Source: an uncultured Nitrososphaerota archaeon (GTDB taxonomy: Archaea > Thermoproteota > Methanomethylicia > Culexarchaeales > Culexmicrobiaceae). Taken from it: a stretch of DNA of 64,000 bases. Both the position numbers and the translations under genes were made by a program. Positions 9,518 through 18,171 of the stretch are shown here, in pieces. A model generated the notes under the pieces. The model worked only from the letters and a program-made list of their open reading frames with translations, did no database searches and was not told the DNA's origin. The DNA lies in contig CAYWZQ010000007.1 in assembly GCA_964462875.1 (NCBI GenBank), forward strand, positions 325 through 64,324, read 5' to 3'. How positions within the stretch are numbered: position 1 is the stretch's first letter; each line of letters begins with the position of its first letter.

Positions 9518-10603
9518 ATGGTTGAGGTAATTGAGATAGACGGATCAATAGGGGAGGGTGGTGGTCAAGTGCTTAGAACAGCACTAGCACTATCAGCTCT
9601 GAGCTTAAAGCCAGTAAGGATATATAACATCAGAGCCAAGAGACCTAATCCAGGTCTTAGACCTCAACACTTAGTAGGCTTGAAAATCCTAGCTACACTA
9701 ACAAAGGCTGAAGTTGACGGAATGAGAGTTGGTTCAACAGAAGTGCTATTTAAACCTAAAACACGTCGATCAGGCAATTTACGAATTAGCGTTGGAACTG
9801 CTGGAAGCATTTCACTTGTTTTACAGGCAATTTTGCCTGTTCTAGCATTTGCCCCCTCCAAGAGTGTAATTGAAATCACTGGTGGGACGGATGTTAAGTG
9901 GAGCCCTCCAATAGACTATGTGAAATATGTTTTCCTACCCCACTTAAAGATGATGGGGTACGAAGTTGAGGTTCAGATTCTTAAAAGAGGTCATTACCCT
10001 AAAGGAGGAGGAAGTGTTAGAGTAATAGTAGAGCCAGTAAGGAAGCTTAAACCCATAAGACTTATTGAAAGAGGAAATGTTAATTGCATTGAGGGAATAT
10101 CGCACTGCGTAAAGTTGCCTAGACATGTTGCTGAAAGACAAGCAAAAGCAGCGAAAGCTTATCTTGAGGATAGAGGGTTTAGTAATGTGAGAATAGCAGT
10201 GGAATGGCATGAGCCAAAGAGAAATCGTCATTTAGGTCCTGGAAGTGGCATAGTTCTATGGGCAAAATGCTCTGCAAAAGCCATTTTGGGCGCAGATTCT
10301 CTTGGAGAGCCCGGCAAGAGAGCTGAGAAAGTGGGTGAAGAAGCGGCTGAGAAACTAGTTGATGAAATAGATAGAGGAGCTCCCGTGGATAGGCATATTG
10401 GAGATATGCTACCTCCATACATGGCTGTAGCAGACGGTGTCTCAGAAATCTATATAACTAATCTAACGCTTCACGCTGAAACTAATATTGAAATAGTGAG
10501 CAAAATTCTCGATGTCAAATTCACAATTGAAAGGGAGAAAGGCAATAAGGCCAAGATTAGGGTTAGGGGATTAGGGTTAATTAATCAGCGGTTAGCTTGT
10601 TAG
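9518..10603 (+). CDS. rtcA: RNA 3'-terminal phosphate cyclase
   Basis: IDGS.GEGGGQ.LR, R..PGL.PQH, GGTDV..SP, YP.GGG, catalytic His in TLHAETN. Confidence 0.95.
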   Translation: MVEVIEIDGSIGEGGGQVLRTALALSALSLKPVRIYNIRAKRPNPGLRPQHLVGLKILATLTKAEVDGMRVGSTEVLFKPKTRRSGNLRISVGTAGSISLVLQAILPVLAFAPSKSVIEITGGTDVKWSPPIDYVKYVFLPHLKMMGYEVEVQILKRGHYPKGGGSVRVIVEPVRKLKPIRLIERGNVNCIEGISHCVKLPRHVAERQAKAAKAYLEDRGFSNVRIAVEWHEPKRNRHLGPGSGIVLWAKCSAKAILGADSLGEPGKRAEKVGEEAAEKLVDEIDRGAPVDRHIGDMLPPYMAVADGVSEIYITNLTLHAETNIEIVSKILDVKFTIEREKGNKAKIRVRGLGLINQRLAC

Positions 10604-11634
10604 TCTTTAGCATAGCTTTTCTTCGCTCTAAAATGCAGGGCTAACTTTACAGCTTCAGCTAGAACATCATCAACACCGACATCGTCCTTAGCAATCATCT
10701 TTGGAATAGAAGCTTTAAGGGAGCTTTCACATCTCTTTATTTGAATTGATGAAGCAATATCCACTTTATTGAGAACGGGCAAGACAGGTATTTTAGGAAA
10801 AGCACTCTTTATCTCCTTTAAGAGTGAAAGTTGCTCCTCAATAGTGTATCCGCTCGACTCCGAGGGATCGATCATGAAAATTATTGAGTCCGCAAGATAT
10901 TGAATAGCTGCTATGGCCATCCTCTCAATTCTGTTTCTCTCTGATAGAGGCCTGTCAAGCAATCCCGGGGTATCAATTATTTGAACTCTCTTGTCATTTA
11001 GCATTAAATGGCCAACTACTATTTCAGTTGTAGTAAATGGGTATTCAGCTATCCTGGGTTTTGCAGTTGATACTTTACTTACAAACGTTGATTTCCCGAC
11101 GTTGGGATAACCCGCAACTACAATTACAAGTTCATCGGGATCTACTGAAGGTACTTTACCGAGCTTGATTCTCACATCTTCTAGTAAGTTTAAATTTCTC
11201 TTTATTCTCTTTACTACTGAGAGAATTCGTCCATAAGCTTCCCTTCTCAATTTAGTAACTTCTTCAGGAGTAGTTGCCTGTCTTATTCTTCGTATGTAGT
11301 CTCTCGTGAGTCTTCGAATTATTTTCACGGAGTATCTGAGCTTTCTCCTAGATGCATCGTAATTGCTTAGGGGCACTATTAGCTCTAAAAGAGCTTTATA
11401 AAATGGATGAAGAGCATTTGATGGGGGAAGGAATTTATATACGCTAATTAGCTTGCTACATATAATGTCACTTAGAGCTCTAATCCTGGCTTCAGCTAAT
11501 CGCTTTGTTTTAATCGTTCTGGATACACGTAGCGGTATTGGTGGAGATACTTTCATGCTTCTTTGATAGGCTATTTGAATAAGCTCGGCTGCATCATGAA
11601 TTTTTGGTATTCTTGAAAATGGTTGCTGAGCCAT
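10600..11634 (-). CDS. NOG1-family GTPase
   Basis: GYPNVGKS, YPFTT, DTPGLLDRP..ERN..E, NKVD; N-terminal LHPFY. Confidence 0.93.
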   Translation of the reverse strand: MAQQPFSRIPKIHDAAELIQIAYQRSMKVSPPIPLRVSRTIKTKRLAEARIRALSDIICSKLISVYKFLPPSNALHPFYKALLELIVPLSNYDASRRKLRYSVKIIRRLTRDYIRRIRQATTPEEVTKLRREAYGRILSVVKRIKRNLNLLEDVRIKLGKVPSVDPDELVIVVAGYPNVGKSTFVSKVSTAKPRIAEYPFTTTEIVVGHLMLNDKRVQIIDTPGLLDRPLSERNRIERMAIAAIQYLADSIIFMIDPSESSGYTIEEQLSLLKEIKSAFPKIPVLPVLNKVDIASSIQIKRCESSLKASIPKMIAKDDVGVDDVLAEAVKLALHFRAKKSYAKD

Positions 11635-11887
11635 ATTTTCTCGACCTCCATACCACTTGCTTTGAATCAATAGTTCTTATCTCGACTATTCTATGGAAAG
11701 GTATTCTAGCGCGCTCATTTCCAAGGGAGTATTCGAAACTTCCCGGATTTATCTTAGTGACGCACCACATGGGTATTACCTTTAAATTATTTGGCGCACC
11801 TCTGTGGATAAACACTATCTCGTACTTTCTTGGGTCTTCCTTTGGATGCCAAATTATTCTATTTAGTACTCTTCTAATTTCGCTCAT
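11594..11887 (-). CDS. DUF504 / RNA-repair-associated domain protein
   Basis: LN.I.W, HRGAP, IPFHRI.EI, VW.R motifs. Confidence 0.8.
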   Translation of the reverse strand: MSEIRRVLNRIIWHPKEDPRKYEIVFIHRGAPNNLKVIPMWCVTKINPGSFEYSLGNERARIPFHRIVEIRTIDSKQVVWRSRKYGSATIFKNTKNS

Positions 11888-11942
11888 TTGCAAATCAATT
11901 ATAGCTTACGAAGTATATAAAGTAACTTGGGTTGTGGGCTCT

Positions 11943-12545
11943 GTGAAAAAGAAGGTAATAGTCATCCATGGTACGCCTGGAACAGGTAAAACTACCATAT
12001 CAAGATATTTGTGTAAGAGAATTGGAGCAATACACATTAACATTTCAAAGATTGTCAGAGATGAGAGGCTCTATGTGGGGGTTGATGAAAGAAGATACTG
12101 TACGTTAATAGCAGATATCGAAAAGCTAACTAAAAGACTAGTTGACTTAATAAAATCAGATGATGATAAATATTTTGTAATTGAAGGACACTTCGCCGAT
12201 ATTGTGCCGAGAGAATACGTGAAAAAGGTAATTGTCCTAAGATTAGATCCTCGAGAGCTGGAAAAAAGGCTCATTAAAAGGGGATGGCCGGAGAAGAAGA
12301 TTGCTGAAAATGTTTTAGCTGAAATACTTGATGAATGCTTAATAGAGGCAGTGAATGCTTATGGAGAGGAAGTTGTAAGGGAAATTGACGTTACTGGAAA
12401 ACAAATAGATGAGATCGTGGCCGAGATCGTTAAGGCAGTGGAGGACGGCGATGAATATAAACCTGGAAAAGTTAATTGGCTGAAAAAGCTAGAGCATGAA
12501 GGTGTGATGGATGAGTACTTAAGCTGGTTATCCTCCAAGGCCTAG
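11943..12545 (+). CDS. Atypical adenylate kinase AK6/Fap7 (hCINAP) family
   Basis: GTPGTGKTT, IEGH, RL..RGW...KI.EN..AE; GTG start at 11943 (upstream ORF extension is spurious). Confidence 0.9.
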   Translation: MKKKVIVIHGTPGTGKTTISRYLCKRIGAIHINISKIVRDERLYVGVDERRYCTLIADIEKLTKRLVDLIKSDDDKYFVIEGHFADIVPREYVKKVIVLRLDPRELEKRLIKRGWPEKKIAENVLAEILDECLIEAVNAYGEEVVREIDVTGKQIDEIVAEIVKAVEDGDEYKPGKVNWLKKLEHEGVMDEYLSWLSSKA

Positions 12546-12773
12546 AAAGCTCATTATTTTATTCCATAAATCGTTTAGTGCATTCATGAAATCTTCCGTT
12601 ACAAAGCCCAGATTTCTGACTATATCTTGTACACCACTTAGAATACCTACTACCATGGAGAACACTACAGTGAGAGTCATAATTGCCAAACCTATTAAAA
12701 GCCCCTCTTCTAAAAGAGGAGAAGCCTTTTTACACTTAAATAGAGAAATCATAGTACGTAGCATTTGCTTCAT
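12528..12773 (-). CDS. Putative small Flp-like / class III signal peptide pilin
   Basis: Basic leader FKCKKA, then SPLLEEGLLIG with Glu at +5 and a ~20-aa hydrophobic helix; 81 aa; last gene of a Tad-like cluster. Confidence 0.6.
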   Translation of the reverse strand: MKQMLRTMISLFKCKKASPLLEEGLLIGLAIMTLTVVFSMVVGILSGVQDIVRNLGFVTEDFMNALNDLWNKIMSFLGLGG

Positions 12774-12804
12774 ATATTGCCCCCAAATTTACTTTTCAAG
12801 TATA

Positions 12805-13632
12805 TTATTTAAAGGCTAGCAGCGCCGAAGCAAGGATATATGCCAGGAAATATATGGTTAGTGCAGTGATTGAGAGTAGAAGTGAGGATCTGATTCCCGT
12901 AATAAGTGACACATAATAGCTGTTAACAAGCACTAGTATAGCGAAAGCAATGAAAAGAGAAGCTGAGAATTCCTTACTGAGTCCTGTGATAATTGAGACT
13001 GAATGAAAAGTATAGTTCTGAAGTGAGAAACCTATTGTCATAATAGAGGAGAGACGAACCATAAGCGCATACACGAGAGAGGAAATCATTGCAAGTAAGA
13101 GTGCGCGCACTCTCATTTGAGACATCATGATTTCTAGCTCCAGTTTAAGGTCTCTTATTTCTCTTAAGTTTCTAATTACTTCATCCCACATCCTACCAGC
13201 TCTCTTGGGTTCCTTCTCAACTAATTTTGCAAATAACTTCAATATTCTCTTGCTTTCTGGATACAGTAAATGTGTACTTAAAGCATGTAGTAGATGTGAG
13301 GCTTTAGCACCCGAATAAAGTTGATTTTCTATAAGCAATTTTATTTTCTTCTTTAGAGAGCCATTATATTCATTGCAAGCTCTTGCAAGGGCAAATTCTG
13401 GACTGAAGTCGAGCTTTAAATATGAGGCAAGTATTGATATGAAGCTTTCTACTTCTATTAGCTCATTTTGTAAATATTTAATCTCGAATTTTCTTTTCTT
13501 GATGAATTTCCTAGCTAGCAGAAGAGAGATTATAGCAATTAATATTGTTAATGCAGTTAATACTATTCTGAAATAAATTTCATTCCTGCTAAAGATAGGC
13601 ATGAATACACTATTGAAACATTCACTATGCAT
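12805..13632 (-). CDS. TadB/TadC-like (T2SS-F/ArlJ-type) pilus platform membrane protein
   Basis: N-terminal TM segment, soluble domain with 'LASYLKLDFSPEFAL', several C-terminal TMs; downstream of a secretion ATPase. Confidence 0.6.
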   Translation of the reverse strand: MHSECFNSVFMPIFSRNEIYFRIVLTALTILIAIISLLLARKFIKKRKFEIKYLQNELIEVESFISILASYLKLDFSPEFALARACNEYNGSLKKKIKLLIENQLYSGAKASHLLHALSTHLLYPESKRILKLFAKLVEKEPKRAGRMWDEVIRNLREIRDLKLELEIMMSQMRVRALLLAMISSLVYALMVRLSSIMTIGFSLQNYTFHSVSIITGLSKEFSASLFIAFAILVLVNSYYVSLITGIRSSLLLSITALTIYFLAYILASALLAFK

Positions 13633-14465
13633 TAACCTATCACCCTCGCCAACCTACTAATGAAGCTTCTCATTAAAATGGAAAGCACAATTAATTGAGA
13701 AAGCACAAAAAAGAGGGGTAATAATGATGGGTCAATTAAAGTATACTGCCTAATTAATAGCAGTGAGGTTAGAAAGTATGTTATTGGCACTAAGAAACTT
13801 TGAACAATTATTATTAGACAGTATAGCTCAAGCTTGGAGTTCAATTTCTTAATTTGCTCTTTTACTTCTGATAATGGTTTAAAGCATATTGAAGAGAGAT
13901 TAATAGAGCGCTCTGGATAGTATGAAAGCAAGACTAGCCCGGACCTTAATGTACTAGACGGTTGATAATGAGCGTATTTTCGCAGCACTTTTTGGGGAGG
14001 AAGACCGTTCACTATGTTTAATATTAGAAAACGAGCATCATGCGATATTTCGGGATAGCTTCCTTGAGCAAGAAAGAGAAGCGCATCATGAAGCGACTTT
14101 GTAGCCGATAAAGTTATTCCAACTTCCCTTAATACTAAATATGCATATCTCGAATAAGTTAGCCGGTCAACCTCATATATGTTAATAATGTATGATGACA
14201 AGTACGTGTATAGAGCGAAAATGGTCAATATGGAGACAAGTATTGAGAGCAGTGAATTAGCTGATACCATTTGAATTAACACCGCTATTAATGAAGATGC
14301 TAGGACTGAAAGCAATATTGAACATGCTATTACCCCTTCCGGCGTTAGCTTTACTCCATACTTTAATGACAAGTATTTTACAGCTTCTCTTAAATTGCTT
14401 GAAACAAAGCGAGCAAATATTTTATTTATACTGGGAATATTAGCACTTCTATATAGACGAAACAT
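13632..14465 (-). CDS. TadB/TadC-like pilus platform membrane protein
   Basis: Two N-terminal TMs, 'SLHDAL..LA....YPEIS....NG..PQ..L..YA...PS..L' T2SS-F-like domain, two C-terminal TMs; overlaps the ATPase stop. Confidence 0.65.
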   Translation of the reverse strand: MFRLYRSANIPSINKIFARFVSSNLREAVKYLSLKYGVKLTPEGVIACSILLSVLASSLIAVLIQMVSANSLLSILVSILTIFALYTYLSSYIINIYEVDRLTYSRYAYLVLREVGITLSATKSLHDALLFLAQGSYPEISHDARFLILNIVNGLPPQKVLRKYAHYQPSSTLRSGLVLLSYYPERSINLSSICFKPLSEVKEQIKKLNSKLELYCLIIIVQSFLVPITYFLTSLLLIRQYTLIDPSLLPLFFVLSQLIVLSILMRSFISRLARVIG

Positions 14466-16548
14466 AGCTCATAAGCCTCCTTGAATCTTGGGTATTTGAT
14501 CGTAACAGAAAGTAGGCCTTGGAAAATATTTTCCTCACCTTTTTCGGCTCTGTGAAGTTTTTTCTTATTAATTTCTCAATTAGCTTTTCAATGAAATGTA
14601 GTTCCTCATAAAATGAACACTCATTCATTAGCTCTTCATTCTTAAGCTTCTTTAAAACTGGAGTATTAAATAGATCGTCAATGACTGGAATGAGCCTATT
14701 ATGAGCATCTCGTCTAAATATATCAATAATTCGCAACTCAGCGCAATTTGATTCTTGACAGCTGATTTCACAAATTCTCCAAACAATACGCTTATTGAGG
14801 AAAGGCTCTAATACTCTCTTCATACATACTATGATGTCTAACTCAGAGAGGAACGCTTTAGGCACTCTATAGTGGAATAACCATTTGTTAAGTAGAGCAT
14901 CCGGAGAGGAAGCATGACATGTCCCTAGGCATTTGAGTCCAGACATTAAAGCGTAGAATAGAGCATGAACATGCTCTCGCGTAAGCACCTCACCTATGAA
15001 CAGATAGTTTGGTGATCTATGGAGAAGCTTTATGACCTCATAGTATTTACGCCTCATGGGCGAGAGATGTTCGAACGGATCAACTCTATATCTTACCTGA
15101 AACTGGTTTGAATTAAATTCTTCAACTGTTTCAATGGCTGATTCAATAGATACTTTTCTCCAATGGGGTGGAGTTACCATGTCCAATGCATTAATTAAAG
15201 TAGTTTTTCCAGATGCAGGTTCACCTACTGCAATTATGCTTCTCTTATGGAAAAGGCAGAATATTAAATATGAGGCAGCTTTCAGAGATAAAGTGTTGTT
15301 TTTAATTAAATCTATTATTGTCAGCGGCTTTCTTTTGAAACGCCTAAAAATCAATGCAGGACCATCAACGGCTAGCGGAGGGATATCAATTGAAGCCCTT
15401 ATGTGAAAGAATTTTGTCCTTACATCTGTTTTAAGAGAGGGAGAAGTTACGTCAAGTCTAAGACCGCTTTCTGCCTTGAGTTGAGTAATTAGCCTCTCCA
15501 CATCATAACGCGTTACAATGACATTACTTTTGCATCGACCTAATTTTGCATGATCTAGATATATAACTGAATTTGGAGAGTCAATAAAAATTTCCTCTAC
15601 ATTATCATCGAGAAGAAATGGAATTAGCTTTGCAAAACCTATGGAATCAAGGCTAGCTATTAGGGAAAGTGTCTTTCTTTGCTTACTTGGGACTTCAGGG
15701 TATAACTCTTTCAAGGCCTTGAGTGCATACTTGATACGAGCAGTCATAATTCTCGAGATAAATCCATGGCCAGCTTTAATGTGCCCAATATTTTTTAACT
15801 GCGCAATTAGACTTAGAGACCAAACCACTGGAAGCAGAAATATGACATCATCAATATAGCTCACTATATATATTGGGCCTTCTCGCTGAGAGCTCGATGC
15901 TATTGAAATCCTGAAGAGATCACCTATTGTATAGCTCAAGATGCTTGATTTCGCATTAATTTCACTATTTTTAGATAATTTGTTTAAATCTATAAATTCA
16001 AGTATGGAAGATGAATTATCAATTAAATGAAGAATTCTTTGAATACTCTTTCTAATTCTTTTATCAAAATATTTATAATAATATTTATCAATTATTTCTT
16101 TTAATCGATTTACTTTCTCTAAATTATAGTAAATAGATTTATTGCCAATGGATATGAGACGTACGAGTTCATTGTTATGTGTGCAGTTGCTAGATACATT
16201 AGTAAAACGTTCTACTCTACTTGAAGTTTCTCTCTTGAGTAATTGACTTATGGTTTTTCGGCTCTTAAATCTTAAATCATATATTAGATCGGCTAAGGCA
16301 GTTATCAGCTCTTCATTAAGATCTTTACAGGGGAAATTAATTTTTATTCTTGAATTTGAGTTGTAAAGTTTTTGAATAAAAAATTTGCATGAAGCGATTG
16401 CGAAGGCTAATGAGGCAACGCAGTAGTTGTCTCCTAAAAAAAGTTTTGCTTCGCAATTTCGTGGGCAACCAAATCTCAAAACTATTGAATTTTGAGTTTT
16501 AAAGCGAACTAGGGGGGAAAGAAAGCAGATAATACCCTTTGGAACCAC
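14449..16548 (-). CDS. CpaF/TadA/VirB11-family pilus assembly ATPase (divergent)
   Basis: L.D..VEEIFID, PPLA.DGP...RRF, Walker A GEPASGKTT, Walker B HRSPNYLFIGEV, His box TCHA. Confidence 0.85.
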   Translation of the reverse strand: MVPKGIICFLSPLVRFKTQNSIVLRFGCPRNCEAKLFLGDNYCVASLAFAIASCKFFIQKLYNSNSRIKINFPCKDLNEELITALADLIYDLRFKSRKTISQLLKRETSSRVERFTNVSSNCTHNNELVRLISIGNKSIYYNLEKVNRLKEIIDKYYYKYFDKRIRKSIQRILHLIDNSSSILEFIDLNKLSKNSEINAKSSILSYTIGDLFRISIASSSQREGPIYIVSYIDDVIFLLPVVWSLSLIAQLKNIGHIKAGHGFISRIMTARIKYALKALKELYPEVPSKQRKTLSLIASLDSIGFAKLIPFLLDDNVEEIFIDSPNSVIYLDHAKLGRCKSNVIVTRYDVERLITQLKAESGLRLDVTSPSLKTDVRTKFFHIRASIDIPPLAVDGPALIFRRFKRKPLTIIDLIKNNTLSLKAASYLIFCLFHKRSIIAVGEPASGKTTLINALDMVTPPHWRKVSIESAIETVEEFNSNQFQVRYRVDPFEHLSPMRRKYYEVIKLLHRSPNYLFIGEVLTREHVHALFYALMSGLKCLGTCHASSPDALLNKWLFHYRVPKAFLSELDIIVCMKRVLEPFLNKRIVWRICEISCQESNCAELRIIDIFRRDAHNRLIPVIDDLFNTPVLKKLKNEELMNECSFYEELHFIEKLIEKLIRKNFTEPKKVRKIFSKAYFLLRSNTQDSRRLMSYVSSI

Positions 16549-16580
16549 GGGCTTTCACCTTGACAATAAATAGTGTGACA

Positions 16581-17564
16581 TTAGTTTAGCAACGAGGAGC
16601 ATTTAATTCCAAGCTCTTTTGAAATTATCTTGAAATGCTGTCTTATGGTGTACTCGGTTGTTTTGAGACTCATGGCAAGCGCTTTTTGGGATAGTACAGG
16701 TTTATAACCATGCTGTTGTGCAATTACTTTATCAGCTGTATAGACTATTGAAACAGCCATTAGATATGGATTTTTCCCCATTTTTATATGTTTACTGAGA
16801 ATATTAGATATTTTATATGATAATTTAATTAATTCATTGAAGTAGTGTTCTTGGTTTATTTTATTCTCTCTTAGTTTTTCAATTATTCTTTCATTATTTT
16901 TTAATTCGTTTATTACTCTAGGTATATAATTTCCTATCGCACTAAACTTCCAATCTATATTTAACTTTCTAGATATTAAGAAAGCAGTTTTCAATAGAGT
17001 TCTCGCGACAACTCTATGACCCATTTTTGAAAAAGCATCAACAATCTCCTTTAATGTCACTGGATAACCTAATTCGCGAACAGCTAACAATAGAGATGCA
17101 GCAGCAATTCTATAGCTTGAACCAAACTTCTTTGCTTGTTTCATGGCTTTCAAGTAAATATATGATGCACGATGAAAAACATGCTTCGGAACTCCGAGAT
17201 TTGAACAAGCTCTTCTAAGAGAACAGAGTGCACCTAATAAAGACTTGTATGGCGCTATGGAGGACAGGTGATGTAGTGAGCTTAACCTCATAAATTTCAG
17301 TATTTTCTCACTATCTTCCACTCTATTAGATAAATCTCTAAACCCAATTATTACGCTTCCAAGCCAACCATCCTTAATGGGCTTACCGTCAGGGCTTACA
17401 TAAACCCTATTTGGAGCAGAGAAGTCCGAGAGAGGTTCTATTTCAAATAAAGGTGGAAGATATATTTTATCGTTGACTAAGCCGCAATTGGAGCATACTA
17501 GCTCTCCATGATCTGAGATCACTAATCTACCGCCGCACTCTTTACATTTTATACCGTCGTTCAA
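16581..17564 (-). CDS. Divergent transcription initiation factor IIB (TFB) paralogue
   Basis: N-terminal Zn ribbon CKECGG...GELVCSNCGLV; cyclin repeat 1 'IAAASLLLAVRELGYPVTLKEI'; repeat 2 'GKNP...A...Y....SQK.LA....TEYTIR'. Confidence 0.85.
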   Translation of the reverse strand: MNDGIKCKECGGRLVISDHGELVCSNCGLVNDKIYLPPLFEIEPLSDFSAPNRVYVSPDGKPIKDGWLGSVIIGFRDLSNRVEDSEKILKFMRLSSLHHLSSIAPYKSLLGALCSLRRACSNLGVPKHVFHRASYIYLKAMKQAKKFGSSYRIAAASLLLAVRELGYPVTLKEIVDAFSKMGHRVVARTLLKTAFLISRKLNIDWKFSAIGNYIPRVINELKNNERIIEKLRENKINQEHYFNELIKLSYKISNILSKHIKMGKNPYLMAVSIVYTADKVIAQQHGYKPVLSQKALAMSLKTTEYTIRQHFKIISKELGIKCSSLLN

Positions 17565-17722
17565 ATCCTACACCCCCTAAAAAGCAATTATAAAAATAAT
17601 AAATATTAACTTTTTCTTACAACTTTATTCGATTAATTTCTATTGTTATACTATAAAACATATATATTATGTACTTAATTGATTGGTTAAATAGGGGAGA
17701 GAGAAGAGTGAAAGTATTGGAA

Positions 17723-18097
17723 TTATGCTTGCTTAACTATACCAATCCACACCTTCTCTATGCCCTTAGCCACTTCAGTTTTAGTTTCAATTCTAAACTG
17801 TAGTCCATGAATGGATATCCAGTACCTAACCTTGTCATTTAATGGTACTTTTTTGTAAACAATTCCCTCGCATAGAATTAGTGGTTGCCCACGCTTGCTT
17901 AGCTCATCAATTGATAGCGGACTGCTCGATAGTACTAGAGCCACCTTATCGTTTGGAGAGATTTTCCCTCCAATGAGCTTTTCGGGTAATTCGCCTAGTA
18001 CGTGAGAGCCATTTGCTCCCGTTAGGTGCAGTATTAGAATTCCCTTGATTTCTGATTTCTCTATCTTGCTAATAGTTAAGGGAATGCAGTTGCTCAT
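17723..18097 (-). CDS. rpo8: DNA-directed RNA polymerase subunit Rpo8 (RpoG, Rpb8 homologue)
   Basis: 'ISKIEKSEIKGILILHL' and 'GIVY...ISIHGL' match the recalled Rpo8/Rpb8 OB-fold pattern; divergent from SmAP3-tgtA as in Crenarchaeota. Confidence 0.75.
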   Translation of the reverse strand: MSNCIPLTISKIEKSEIKGILILHLTGANGSHVLGELPEKLIGGKISPNDKVALVLSSSPLSIDELSKRGQPLILCEGIVYKKVPLNDKVRYWISIHGLQFRIETKTEVAKGIEKVWIGIVKQA

Positions 18098-18171
18098 TAT
18101 TGCTCGCCGAAAGTTTATTGAATAAGAAAACAAATAAATTCTTTTGCGCCAATTGGATTGGAGGCTGGTTT

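Follow-up and report, generated by a model that had tools for sequence, protein, structure and literature searches.

A probable 4D-type, Tad-like filament cassette with a linked TFIIB paralogue and a prepilin-like small protein in a relative of Candidatus Culexmicrobium

The closest described counterparts of the gene cassette considered here are the systems that Makarova, Koonin and Albers (2016) placed in subclade 4D of the archaeal type IV pili (T4P). As that survey's passages on the subclade describe it, an ATPase, a protein with four to five transmembrane segments that is 'possibly' derived from TadC, a homologue of transcription factor IIB (TFIIB) and RPB8 are encoded in one predicted operon, and a pilin or secreted protein was never found at these loci, with the authors' caveat that unidentified pilins are possibly encoded elsewhere (PMC4858521). 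The same passages assign the ATPase to arCOG05558 in Pyrobaculum and Thermoproteus, give it an extra cysteine-bearing N-terminal domain and no C-terminal domain, describe the TFIIB homologue as a single-cyclin-domain protein 'specific for Pyrobaculum-Thermoproteus', and propose a transcription-related function (PMC4858521). In a 2026 PLoS Genetics survey, the portion devoted to subsystem 4D presents it as a probable non-functional remnant without a putative pilin and reports components scattered in Asgard and DPANN genomes (PMC13705601). Here we describe five genes in a 64,000-nt stretch of DNA, referred to throughout as the window (GenBank assembly GCA_964462875.1, contig CAYWZQ010000007.1, positions 325 to 64,324, forward strand), from an uncultured archaeon of the Methanomethylicia related to Candidatus Culexmicrobium. 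These genes encode a divergent TFB paralogue (TFBp), a secretion ATPase, two membrane proteins (MemA and MemB) and a prepilin-like protein of 81 residues (small81). With a probability of about 0.6, the cassette is a 4D-type system fuller than those published, namely a Tad-like minimal filament or pseudopilus machine tied to TFBp.

The open reading frame (ORF) list of the window places all five ORFs on the minus strand, exactly where the earlier note on this DNA had drawn them. They are, in order of transcription:

16581-17564, minus strand: TFBp, 327 aa, TTG start
14449-16548, minus strand: ATPase gene, 699 aa, GTG start
13632-14465, minus strand: MemA, 277 aa
12805-13632, minus strand: MemB, 275 aa
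12528-12773, minus strand: small81, 81 aa, ATG start

Going from TFBp to small81, a gap of 32 nt is followed by overlaps of 17 nt and 1 nt and then by a gap of 31 nt, so the co-oriented, tightly spaced or overlapping block that the earlier note reported is what the coordinates show. On its other contigs the genome (1.85 Mb, 21 contigs) has a single canonical TFB, four further T2SSE ATPases, three genes for canonical platform proteins and one Peptidase_A24 gene. A profile search of the genome's contigs found no further T2SSE, T2SSF or Peptidase_A24 match on the contig of the window; the single Peptidase_A24 gene and the remaining T4P genes are located on contigs C1 and C4 (loci, genomes, contigs and families carry our own labels, beginning with L, G, C and f, where they must be told apart). 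The lack of a prepilin peptidase alongside the cassette, also remarked on in the earlier note, is therefore real, the sole gene of this kind being on another contig.

Small81 has a basic N-terminus followed by the sequence K-A|S-P-L-L-E-E-G and a single hydrophobic helix, and ends in a second helix that is short and amphipathic; the mature protein is predicted to comprise about 64 residues. In an alignment of 19 orthologues L20, E22, E23, G24, L26, S39 and F62 are invariant and the motif [KR][GA]-SPL[LV]EEG is fixed, so that G or A occupies position -1 and E position +5, a pattern shared with type IV prepilins. Within the family small81 is 57-77% identical, compared with 43-46% for the ATPase and 33-40% for the membrane proteins, which makes it the best conserved part of the cassette. 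Weak matches to Pfam Pilin_N were obtained for three of the 19 members (best E 0.0054), and small81 gave no match to Pfam Flp_Fap; the best ESM Atlas match, a 66-aa Thorarchaeota cluster at 0.89, is a lead only. The earlier note was right about the anatomy of a small Flp-like protein, which is a candidate prepilin.

The ATPase gene encodes a secretion ATPase of the FlaI/VirB11/TadA type with intact catalytic motifs; as a secretion ATPase it agrees with the original reading, which named it a CpaF/VirB11 enzyme. It matches Pfam T2SSE (E 2.6e-9), NCBIfam FlaI (E 7.8e-32 over residues 275-677, far under the equivalog cut-off) and the TadA family TIGR03819 (E 1.5e-19, 70.4 bits, cut-off 373). The catalytic half spans residues ~290-690, and the alignment to the FlaI model extends to position 516 of 527; the enzyme is complete. 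Among 19 orthologues from distant lineages, G442, E443, G447, K448, T449 and T450 of Walker A, L509, H510, P513 and E520 of the Walker B region, and T543 and H545 of the His box are all invariant. The N-terminal ~285 residues carry a cysteine cluster, the pattern of which is common to the window's family, families f4, f7 and f8 and the Frey- and Jordarchaeia, and is lost in f3 and f5. A model of these 285 residues (predicted local distance difference test, pLDDT, 78) returned nothing at E <= 0.001 in a Foldseek search of PDB; in a wide structure search its best Z was 5.8, within noise, and its ESM Atlas score was 0.79.

MemA, MemB and small81 have no direct Pfam or NCBIfam match, and were assigned by way of their orthologues, by profiles and by a fold. 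Among the orthologues of both membrane proteins the leading Pfam family is T2SSF, matched by nine of 19 for MemA (best E 1.7e-5) and by seven of 20 for MemB (best E 3.1e-5). The MemA and MemB profiles align with each other in hhalign at 93% probability (E 2.4e-7), that of MemB aligns with the second T2SS-F domain of the genome's two-domain platform protein at 77% (E 2e-5), and that of MemA matches the same protein weakly (E 0.005). In the AlphaFold model of MemA (pLDDT 84), the top nine Foldseek matches in PDB are cytoplasmic domains of EpsF, OutF and PilC, with probabilities of 0.96-1.00, E of 0.07-0.65 and target-normalised template-modelling scores of 0.48-0.59. MemA, a polytopic membrane protein, and MemB are paralogues with one T2SS-F domain of the TadB/TadC/PilC type each, that of MemA being cytoplasmic, and the TadB/TadC-like pair named in the earlier note is upheld by the fold of the MemA model and by the T2SSF matches among orthologues of both; in light of the Pfam, hhalign and Foldseek matches, the membrane proteins do not want for a T2SS-F fold.

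TFBp is a full-length protein with an N-terminal Zn ribbon (CxxC...CxxC) and two cyclin repeats, of which Pfam detects one and the NCBIfam and BLAST alignments cover both. It matches Pfam TFIIB (E 3.2e-8) and the Zn ribbon family (E 2.1e-7), aligns over residues 5-322 with the NCBIfam TFB model (86.9 bits, cut-off 384) and shares 28% identity with the genome's canonical TFB over residues 26-320, so the divergent TFB said to head the cassette is indeed there. The Zn-ribbon cysteines C7, C10, C24 and C27 are invariant in 22 orthologues, and family alignments show that a C-terminal TEYTIR motif resembling a recognition helix is retained. In the alignment with the genome's own TFB the canonical EWR motif of the B-reader is absent from TFBp, with PP(L/I)F... 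in its place, and TFBp is on this account a divergent paralogue distinct from the housekeeping factor. A homologue search with TFBp returned 12 close relatives; all linked TFB ORFs listed score better against TFBp than against canonical TFB.

It is clear that this set of genes is widely retained. An ATPase match at E <= 5e-55 is present in 30 of 40 relatives of the same class, the other 10 having paralogue-level matches only (E >= 1.6e-35). The order (rpo8)-TFBp-ATPase-MemA-MemB-small81, converging on or near the AK6 kinase gene, was seen at 20 loci and holds across the window's family and order. In a sample of the phylum, 67 of 301 genomes have an ATPase match at E <= 1e-60; among these 67, the matches L106 and L108 of family f30 are paralogues by reciprocal search, and L109 and L110 of the same family were judged probable paralogues from their similar scores and their lack of cassette neighbours; G146, another f30 match with a like score, was set aside as well. 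Removal of these four paralogue loci (two by reciprocal search, two by likeness) from 40 ATPase-centred loci leaves 36. A TFB paralogue lies within 8 kb of the ATPase gene in 35 of the 36; at 31 loci the two genes are co-oriented, and at 10 they are both co-oriented and no more than 200 nt apart. The linkage of TFB to the pilus genes that the earlier note proposed to look for in relatives is found. Small81 is present at 31 of the 36, always on the same strand and 1.1-1.8 kb downstream of the ATPase gene, and AK6 lies beside small81 at 31 of the 40 ATPase-centred loci. A scan of 185,579 species genomes for the small81 motif yielded 73 confirmed loci: 43 of Thermoproteota type (Culexmicrobium, Culexarchaeum, Methanomethylicus, Methanosuratincola, Nezhaarchaeales and metagenome-assembled genomes, MAGs, of other Thermoprotei and Thermoproteota), 28 Asgard, one from an uncultured archaeon and one labelled Bacillaceae. 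The last of these, L085, carries ArcTGT-Lsm-TFB paralogue-ATPase-small gene-AK6; almost certainly the contig is archaeal and was placed in a bacterial MAG by a binning error.

In family f5, five genomes of three genera, 90-98% complete, are without an ATPase orthologue; small81 was found in none of the five at E <= 0.01 (positive control five of five), and their TFB matches are at canonical level only, 1e-30 to 1e-36, compared with 1e-63 to 1e-98 in sister genera. Across 151 genomes, TFB matches at paralogue level (E <= 1e-49) occur only in carriers of the ATPase, as checked in 20 of the 21 genomes with such matches. Related genomes are not independent, and the co-occurrence and joint loss are therefore suggestive rather than the outcome of a statistical test. 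Together, the conserved linkage and the joint loss favour a functional tie of the TFB paralogue to the cassette.

The earlier note knew of no described archaeal pilus locus of such architecture, a remark that subclade 4D, as set out in the relevant passages of both surveys, contradicts (PMC4858521, PMC13705601). With 4D already published, the locus probably falls, in large part, within a described T4P clade of the same gene order. The likenesses to it are several: a VirB11-type ATPase with an N-terminal cysteine region; a TFIIB homologue in the predicted operon, TFBp lying 32 nt from the ATPase gene on the same strand; RPB8 alongside, the window having rpo8 158 nt upstream of TFBp on the same strand; and a partner with four to five transmembrane segments, of which the window has two, both of T2SS-F type. 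The differences are that the published system is pilin-less whereas the window has the conserved, prepilin-like small81, that its TFIIB is a single-cyclin protein whereas TFBp is full-length with two cyclin repeats, that it consists of two components plus TFIIB whereas the window has a pair of T2SS-F paralogues, that its ATPase is without the C-terminal domain whereas that of the window is complete, and that it was reported from Pyrobaculum and Thermoproteus whereas the window belongs to the Methanomethylicia. What is new here is the candidate for a prepilin-like subunit and a distribution wider than that published; the outline of the architecture was already known. No earlier report of a 4D pilin, or of the cassette in Culexarchaeia, Methanomethylicia or Asgard archaea, was found in the library of papers searched; the supplementary tables of the two surveys may list more lineages.

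A complete genome of another class (G140, 2.37 Mb) links the window indirectly to the published loci. Next to Lsm-ArcTGT it carries, all in one orientation, rpo8 and the genes for a 275-aa TFB, a 525-aa ATPase and a membrane protein of 259 aa, a layout that matches the description given for Thermoproteus in the text of the 2016 survey (PMC4858521). Its ATPase best-matches that of the window (E 4e-38 vs 1e-12 for the next paralogue) and joins the cassette clade in a quick tree (SH-like approximate likelihood ratio test, SH-aLRT, 86), and its TFB best-matches TFBp. There is no small gene in this locus. A small81 homologue of 78 aa lies ~450 kb away (L144:5457-5693, minus strand; G140:C1:2198477-2198689; E 1.5e-7) and reads R-G|D-I-F-I-E-E, with G at -1 and E at +5 and +6; this unlinked homologue fits the 4D authors' caveat that pilins might be encoded elsewhere. 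The two large ORFs that flank it resemble, as judged by eye, deoxyhypusine synthase and CTP synthase genes.

A further comparison is with the bacterial Tad/Flp (type IVc) pilus systems, with TadA/CpaF, TadB, TadC, Flp and TadV. The Flp pilin motif is G/XXXXEY. Like these systems, the cassette has a single ATPase, a platform of two T2SS-F proteins with one domain each and a candidate pilin of very small size, along with G or A at -1, E at +5 and a GXGD peptidase, the last encoded elsewhere in this genome and within the cassette in some lineages. It differs in that small81 has E-E-G instead of E-Y-G and no Flp_Fap match, in that the ATPase scores 70 bits against the TadA-family cut-off of 373 and a TFB paralogue is linked to it, and in that no secretin, TadZ or pseudopilin genes are present.

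Among transcription factors, the TFB3 of the Sulfolobales is a truncated protein with an unlinked gene, and DNA damage induces it. The likeness to the Sulfolobales TFB3/Ups/Ced systems consists in the association of a TFB paralogue with type IV pilus genes and, for Ced, in a HerA-like ATPase that is linked to the cassette in other lineages. TFBp is full-length and adjacent to the pilus-like genes, and a TFB3-like truncated factor was ruled out on the former ground. The second candidate was TFB2 of Sulfolobus, presented in a recent preprint as a cell-cycle TFB encoded in a gar1-tfb2 operon (bioRxiv 10.64898/2026.09.06.749720). Like TFBp it is a divergent full-length TFB paralogue of the Thermoproteota beside a small beta-barrel information-processing gene; unlike TFBp, which follows rpo8, it sits behind gar1 and keeps the GPEWR B-reader. 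Two genomes of family f18 have a divergent TFB of this kind, which follows an 81-aa Gar1-like ORF (PF04410, E 9.5e-5), keeps GPEWR, has no Lsm, rpo8, ArcTGT or AK6 detected in its surroundings and scores ~4e-15 against the TFBp profile, lower than canonical TFB does. This TFB2-like gene is no positional orthologue of TFBp, and the gar1 neighbour, the kept EWR and the lower profile score rule out TFBp as an orthologue of Sulfolobus TFB2.

The cassette is flanked by genes of information processing and contains two stretches that resemble promoters:

17723-18133, minus strand: rpo8 (RpoG/Rpb8-like RNA polymerase subunit), 158 nt upstream of TFBp and co-oriented with it
17586-17620, minus strand: AT-rich promoter-like element upstream of TFBp, as read from the sequence
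12806-12813, minus strand: TTTAAATA, TATA-like box that takes in part of the stop codon of MemB and stands 33-40 nt before the ATG of small81
11946-12545, plus strand: AK6/Fap7-type kinase gene (AAA_18 E 1e-24, PRK03839 E 2.7e-37)

The promoter-like element consists of GTAAGAAAAAGTTAATATT (17620-17602) and another TATA-like run (17595-17586), and a Shine-Dalgarno-like GGGGGTG run immediately precedes the TTG start of TFBp. The GTAAGAAAAAGTTAATATT motif also occurs upstream of the orthologous TFB genes in the window's family and order (window, L013-L019), and the element may serve as the promoter of TFBp. The 32-nt gap between TFBp and the ATPase gene suggests that in this genome TFB is co-transcribed with the ATPase and platform genes. 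A GGGGG Shine-Dalgarno-like run (12781-12785) precedes small81, and TATA-like boxes stand at the equivalent place upstream of small81 in L013, L014, L016, L020, L023 and L029. TTTAAATA may thus be an internal promoter for small81, and we propose that this gene, with a TATA-like box of its own, could be expressed at a higher level.

The rpo8 product matches PF16992 at E 6.2e-5 (23.5 bits, below the cut-off of 27), and all nine of its orthologues match the same family, five of them above the cut-off; together with the AAA_18 and PRK03839 matches of AK6, this confirms the position between rpo8 and AK6 given in the earlier note. AK6 is a conserved flank and no component of the machine. It is convergent with small81, and the 3' ends overlap by 18 nt (12528-12545), which leaves no space for separate terminators; the same overlap is present in L013, with gene ends at 11968 and 11951. 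The start of AK6 is uncertain. The listed ORF (11604-12545, plus strand, 313 aa) is probably over-extended at its 5' end, because the kinase domain begins near residue 115, orthologues are ~200 aa long, and the additional stretch runs across the MJ1316-like and Nog1-like genes of the opposite strand. The block that adjoins AK6 in the window (9518-11893) comprises RtcA (RNA 3'-phosphate cyclase), a Nog1-like GTPase and an MJ1316-domain protein, and is kept beside AK6 in the window's family (L013-L015, L033, L037, L038).

The GC content of the cassette is 35.3%, compared with 39.6% for the genome, which corresponds to the 4.7th percentile of 3492 windows of equal length. The AT-richness noted earlier is, on this profile, modest but genuine. 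Across many families of Thermoproteota the cassette is placed between Lsm/ArcTGT/rpo8 and AK6, and this conserved position rules out a recent or horizontally acquired AT-rich island; vertical inheritance of the cassette is the best reading.

Asgard archaea present a different arrangement. In the Frey- and Jordarchaeia the ATPase-MemA-MemB block is transcribed divergently from small81. Each of the four loci of sufficient length (L061, L069, L087, L088) has the TFB paralogue ~0.6-0.8 kb downstream of small81, L068 ending too soon to show it; Lsm, ArcTGT and AK6 were not detected near these loci. Among Asgard the full set occurs together in the Frey- and Jordarchaeia, and orthologues of the ATPase, the TFB paralogue and the small gene are found in other Asgard also. 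The TFB gene abuts the ATPase gene in Atabeyarchaeia and Njordarchaeota, and in two Heimdallarchaeota genomes small81 adjoins AK6 with the ATPase gene ~10 kb away. In the Atabeyarchaeia locus the gene after the cassette ATPase (L135:1494-6347, minus strand) encodes the large subunit of DNA polymerase D (DP2), which carries an intein with a LAGLIDADG domain.

By reciprocal search the best match of the Asgard ATPases is the ATPase of the window. In a quick tree of 36 chosen rows, with several long branches and an arbitrary root, all 30 cassette ATPases stand apart from the genome's own paralogues (SH-aLRT 86), those of Frey-, Jord- and Atabeyarchaeia (L061, L068, L135) nest among Thermoproteota rows (SH-aLRT 97-98), and those of Heimdall- and Hodarchaeota form a separate deep branch. 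The cassette of the Frey-, Jord- and Atabeyarchaeia may have been received by transfer between phyla, and, if so, it moved together with its TFB gene.

In other lineages further genes join the cassette. At 16 loci the 3' end of small81 is met or overlapped by a gene for a HerA-like ATPase of ~600 aa (DUF87 E 1e-16 to 1e-20; best PDB match HerA, E 4e-17), in some families the TFB paralogue and ATPase genes have a Peptidase_A24 (GXGD-type) gene between them, and in eight loci an ORF for a coiled-coil protein of 113-153 aa, absent from the window, is directly upstream of the ATPase gene:

L111:10928-12733, L029:4283-6097, L121:11867-13789 and 13 further loci: HerA-like ATPase gene
L115:10147-10725, plus strand: Peptidase_A24, E 9.8e-11, above cut-off
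L116:6809-7444, minus strand: Peptidase_A24, E 1.1e-3, weak
L113:6090-6671, minus strand: Peptidase_A24, E 6.9e-3, weak
L020:6828-7169, L021:6685-7092, L121:7429-7890 and five more loci: coiled-coil ORF

In the window's own genome the HerA-like orthologue is unlinked (contig C11, L126:6450-8177) and lies between UDG and XPD helicase genes.

From these components we infer how small81 would be cleaved, how a filament would be assembled, what TFBp may serve and what the cellular role might be. The genome's single, distantly encoded prepilin peptidase would cleave small81 after [KR][GA]; a hexamer of the ATPase would dock on the TadB/TadC-like platform of MemA and MemB and, driven by ATP, raise processed subunits of ~64 aa out of the membrane to build either a thin filament of Flp-like kind or a pseudopilus of short length. 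TFBp would have a promoter of its own and, in this genome, probably share a transcript with the ATPase and platform genes; it would be an alternative initiation factor tied to the cassette, and small81 would be expressed at a higher level from its own TATA-like box. As for role, the strong conservation, vertical inheritance and recurrent HerA-like neighbour lead us to speculate that a core envelope or DNA-handling task is likelier than ordinary adhesion.

Several observations weigh against a 4D-type filament machine tied to TFBp. The distance between TFB and ATPase genes is 1.4-3.1 kb in many lineages, with intervening ORFs, some on the opposite strand, and in one family the TFB gene is inverted and lies beyond Lsm-ArcTGT; where the gene is thus separated or inverted, co-transcription with the ATPase is not general. 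The region is a conserved information-processing neighbourhood, so that part of the linkage may be inherited gene order. The small81 profile had no significant match among PDB sequences, and small81 has none to Flp or to a solved pilin; surface pilins typically evolve fast, and small81 is by contrast strongly conserved. The Pyrobaculum and Thermoproteus ATPase, as the 2016 text describes it, is without the C-terminal domain, which the window's enzyme has; the missing domain is a feature of a subset, and the window is therefore filed as a variant of 4D and not under arCOG05558. Both published surveys, in their treatment of 4D, favour a repurposed or remnant system (PMC4858521, PMC13705601).

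Repurposing, proposed for 4D in the 2016 survey's discussion of it and repeated in that of 2026 (PMC4858521, PMC13705601), would make the cassette a membrane complex that works with TFBp and RNA polymerase in a transcription or DNA pathway, with small81 as a non-polymerising subunit. The adjoining rpo8 and TFB genes of many lineages, the conserved, cysteine-clustered N-terminal region of the ATPase with no known fold, the housekeeping-level conservation of small81 and the HerA-like ATPase gene against the small gene in 16 loci of other lineages all accord with it. We nevertheless regard it as unlikely, given the full minimal T4P set with the expected signatures (ATPase motifs, T2SS-F domains, G or A at -1, E at +5) and the prepilin peptidase gene within the cassette of some lineages, which is sensible only if a prepilin-type substrate is processed. 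That the cassette is what is left of a type IV filament system, now in decay and without function, as the 2026 survey reads subsystem 4D (PMC13705601), might be suspected from the failure of the window's membrane proteins and small81 to be detected directly by Pfam or NCBIfam. It would have to accommodate five open and tightly spaced frames, catalytic residues that do not vary over 19 orthologues of distant lineages, a small81 that is 57-77% identical within the family and retention of the cassette in 30 of 40 relatives; it is the worst fit to the data among the three rivals, and we consider it extremely improbable.

A different question is whether the TFB gene belongs with the others at all. 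TFBp could be a general alternative factor of the Lsm/rpo8 neighbourhood with its own regulon, the pilus-like genes being mere neighbours. ArcTGT-Lsm-(rpo8)-TFB ... AK6 is kept across many families, the ORFs between TFB and ATPase and the inversion described above loosen the tie, the TFB of the Atabeyarchaeia locus keeps a divergent Lsm neighbour, and the TFB gene has a conserved promoter-like motif of its own. Set against this are the Frey- and Jordarchaeia, where TFB remains ~1 kb from small81 and the ATPase gene with Lsm, ArcTGT and AK6 not detected, the joint absence of ATPase, small81 and TFB paralogue from five genomes of three genera, and the confinement of paralogue-level TFB matches to ATPase carriers, and we think inherited gene order a rather poor prospect as the explanation.

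The reading of the cassette as a 4D-type machine tied to TFBp has implications for a wider group of archaea. An archaeal origin has been proposed for bacterial Tad/Flp pili. As a tentative extension, which we hold possible and somewhat doubtful, 4D would be neither a peculiarity of the Thermoproteales nor a remnant but an ancient core system of Thermoproteota and Asgard archaea: a Tad-like machine with an overlooked, conserved Flp-like subunit, a dedicated TFIIB paralogue and often an in-operon peptidase and HerA-type translocase, which would build a pseudopilus for DNA uptake or exchange or for a transcription-coupled envelope task, and which may stand near the archaeal stock of the bacterial Tad/Flp pili. 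The findings contradict the view of 4D as a pilin-less remnant, and they provide testable candidates, one for the filament subunit that 4D was said to lack and others for genes under the control of a TFIIB paralogue that is as yet uncharacterised, at a time when cultures exist for some of the lineages involved. They also bear on the specialisation of general transcription factors in the archaeal relatives of eukaryotes.

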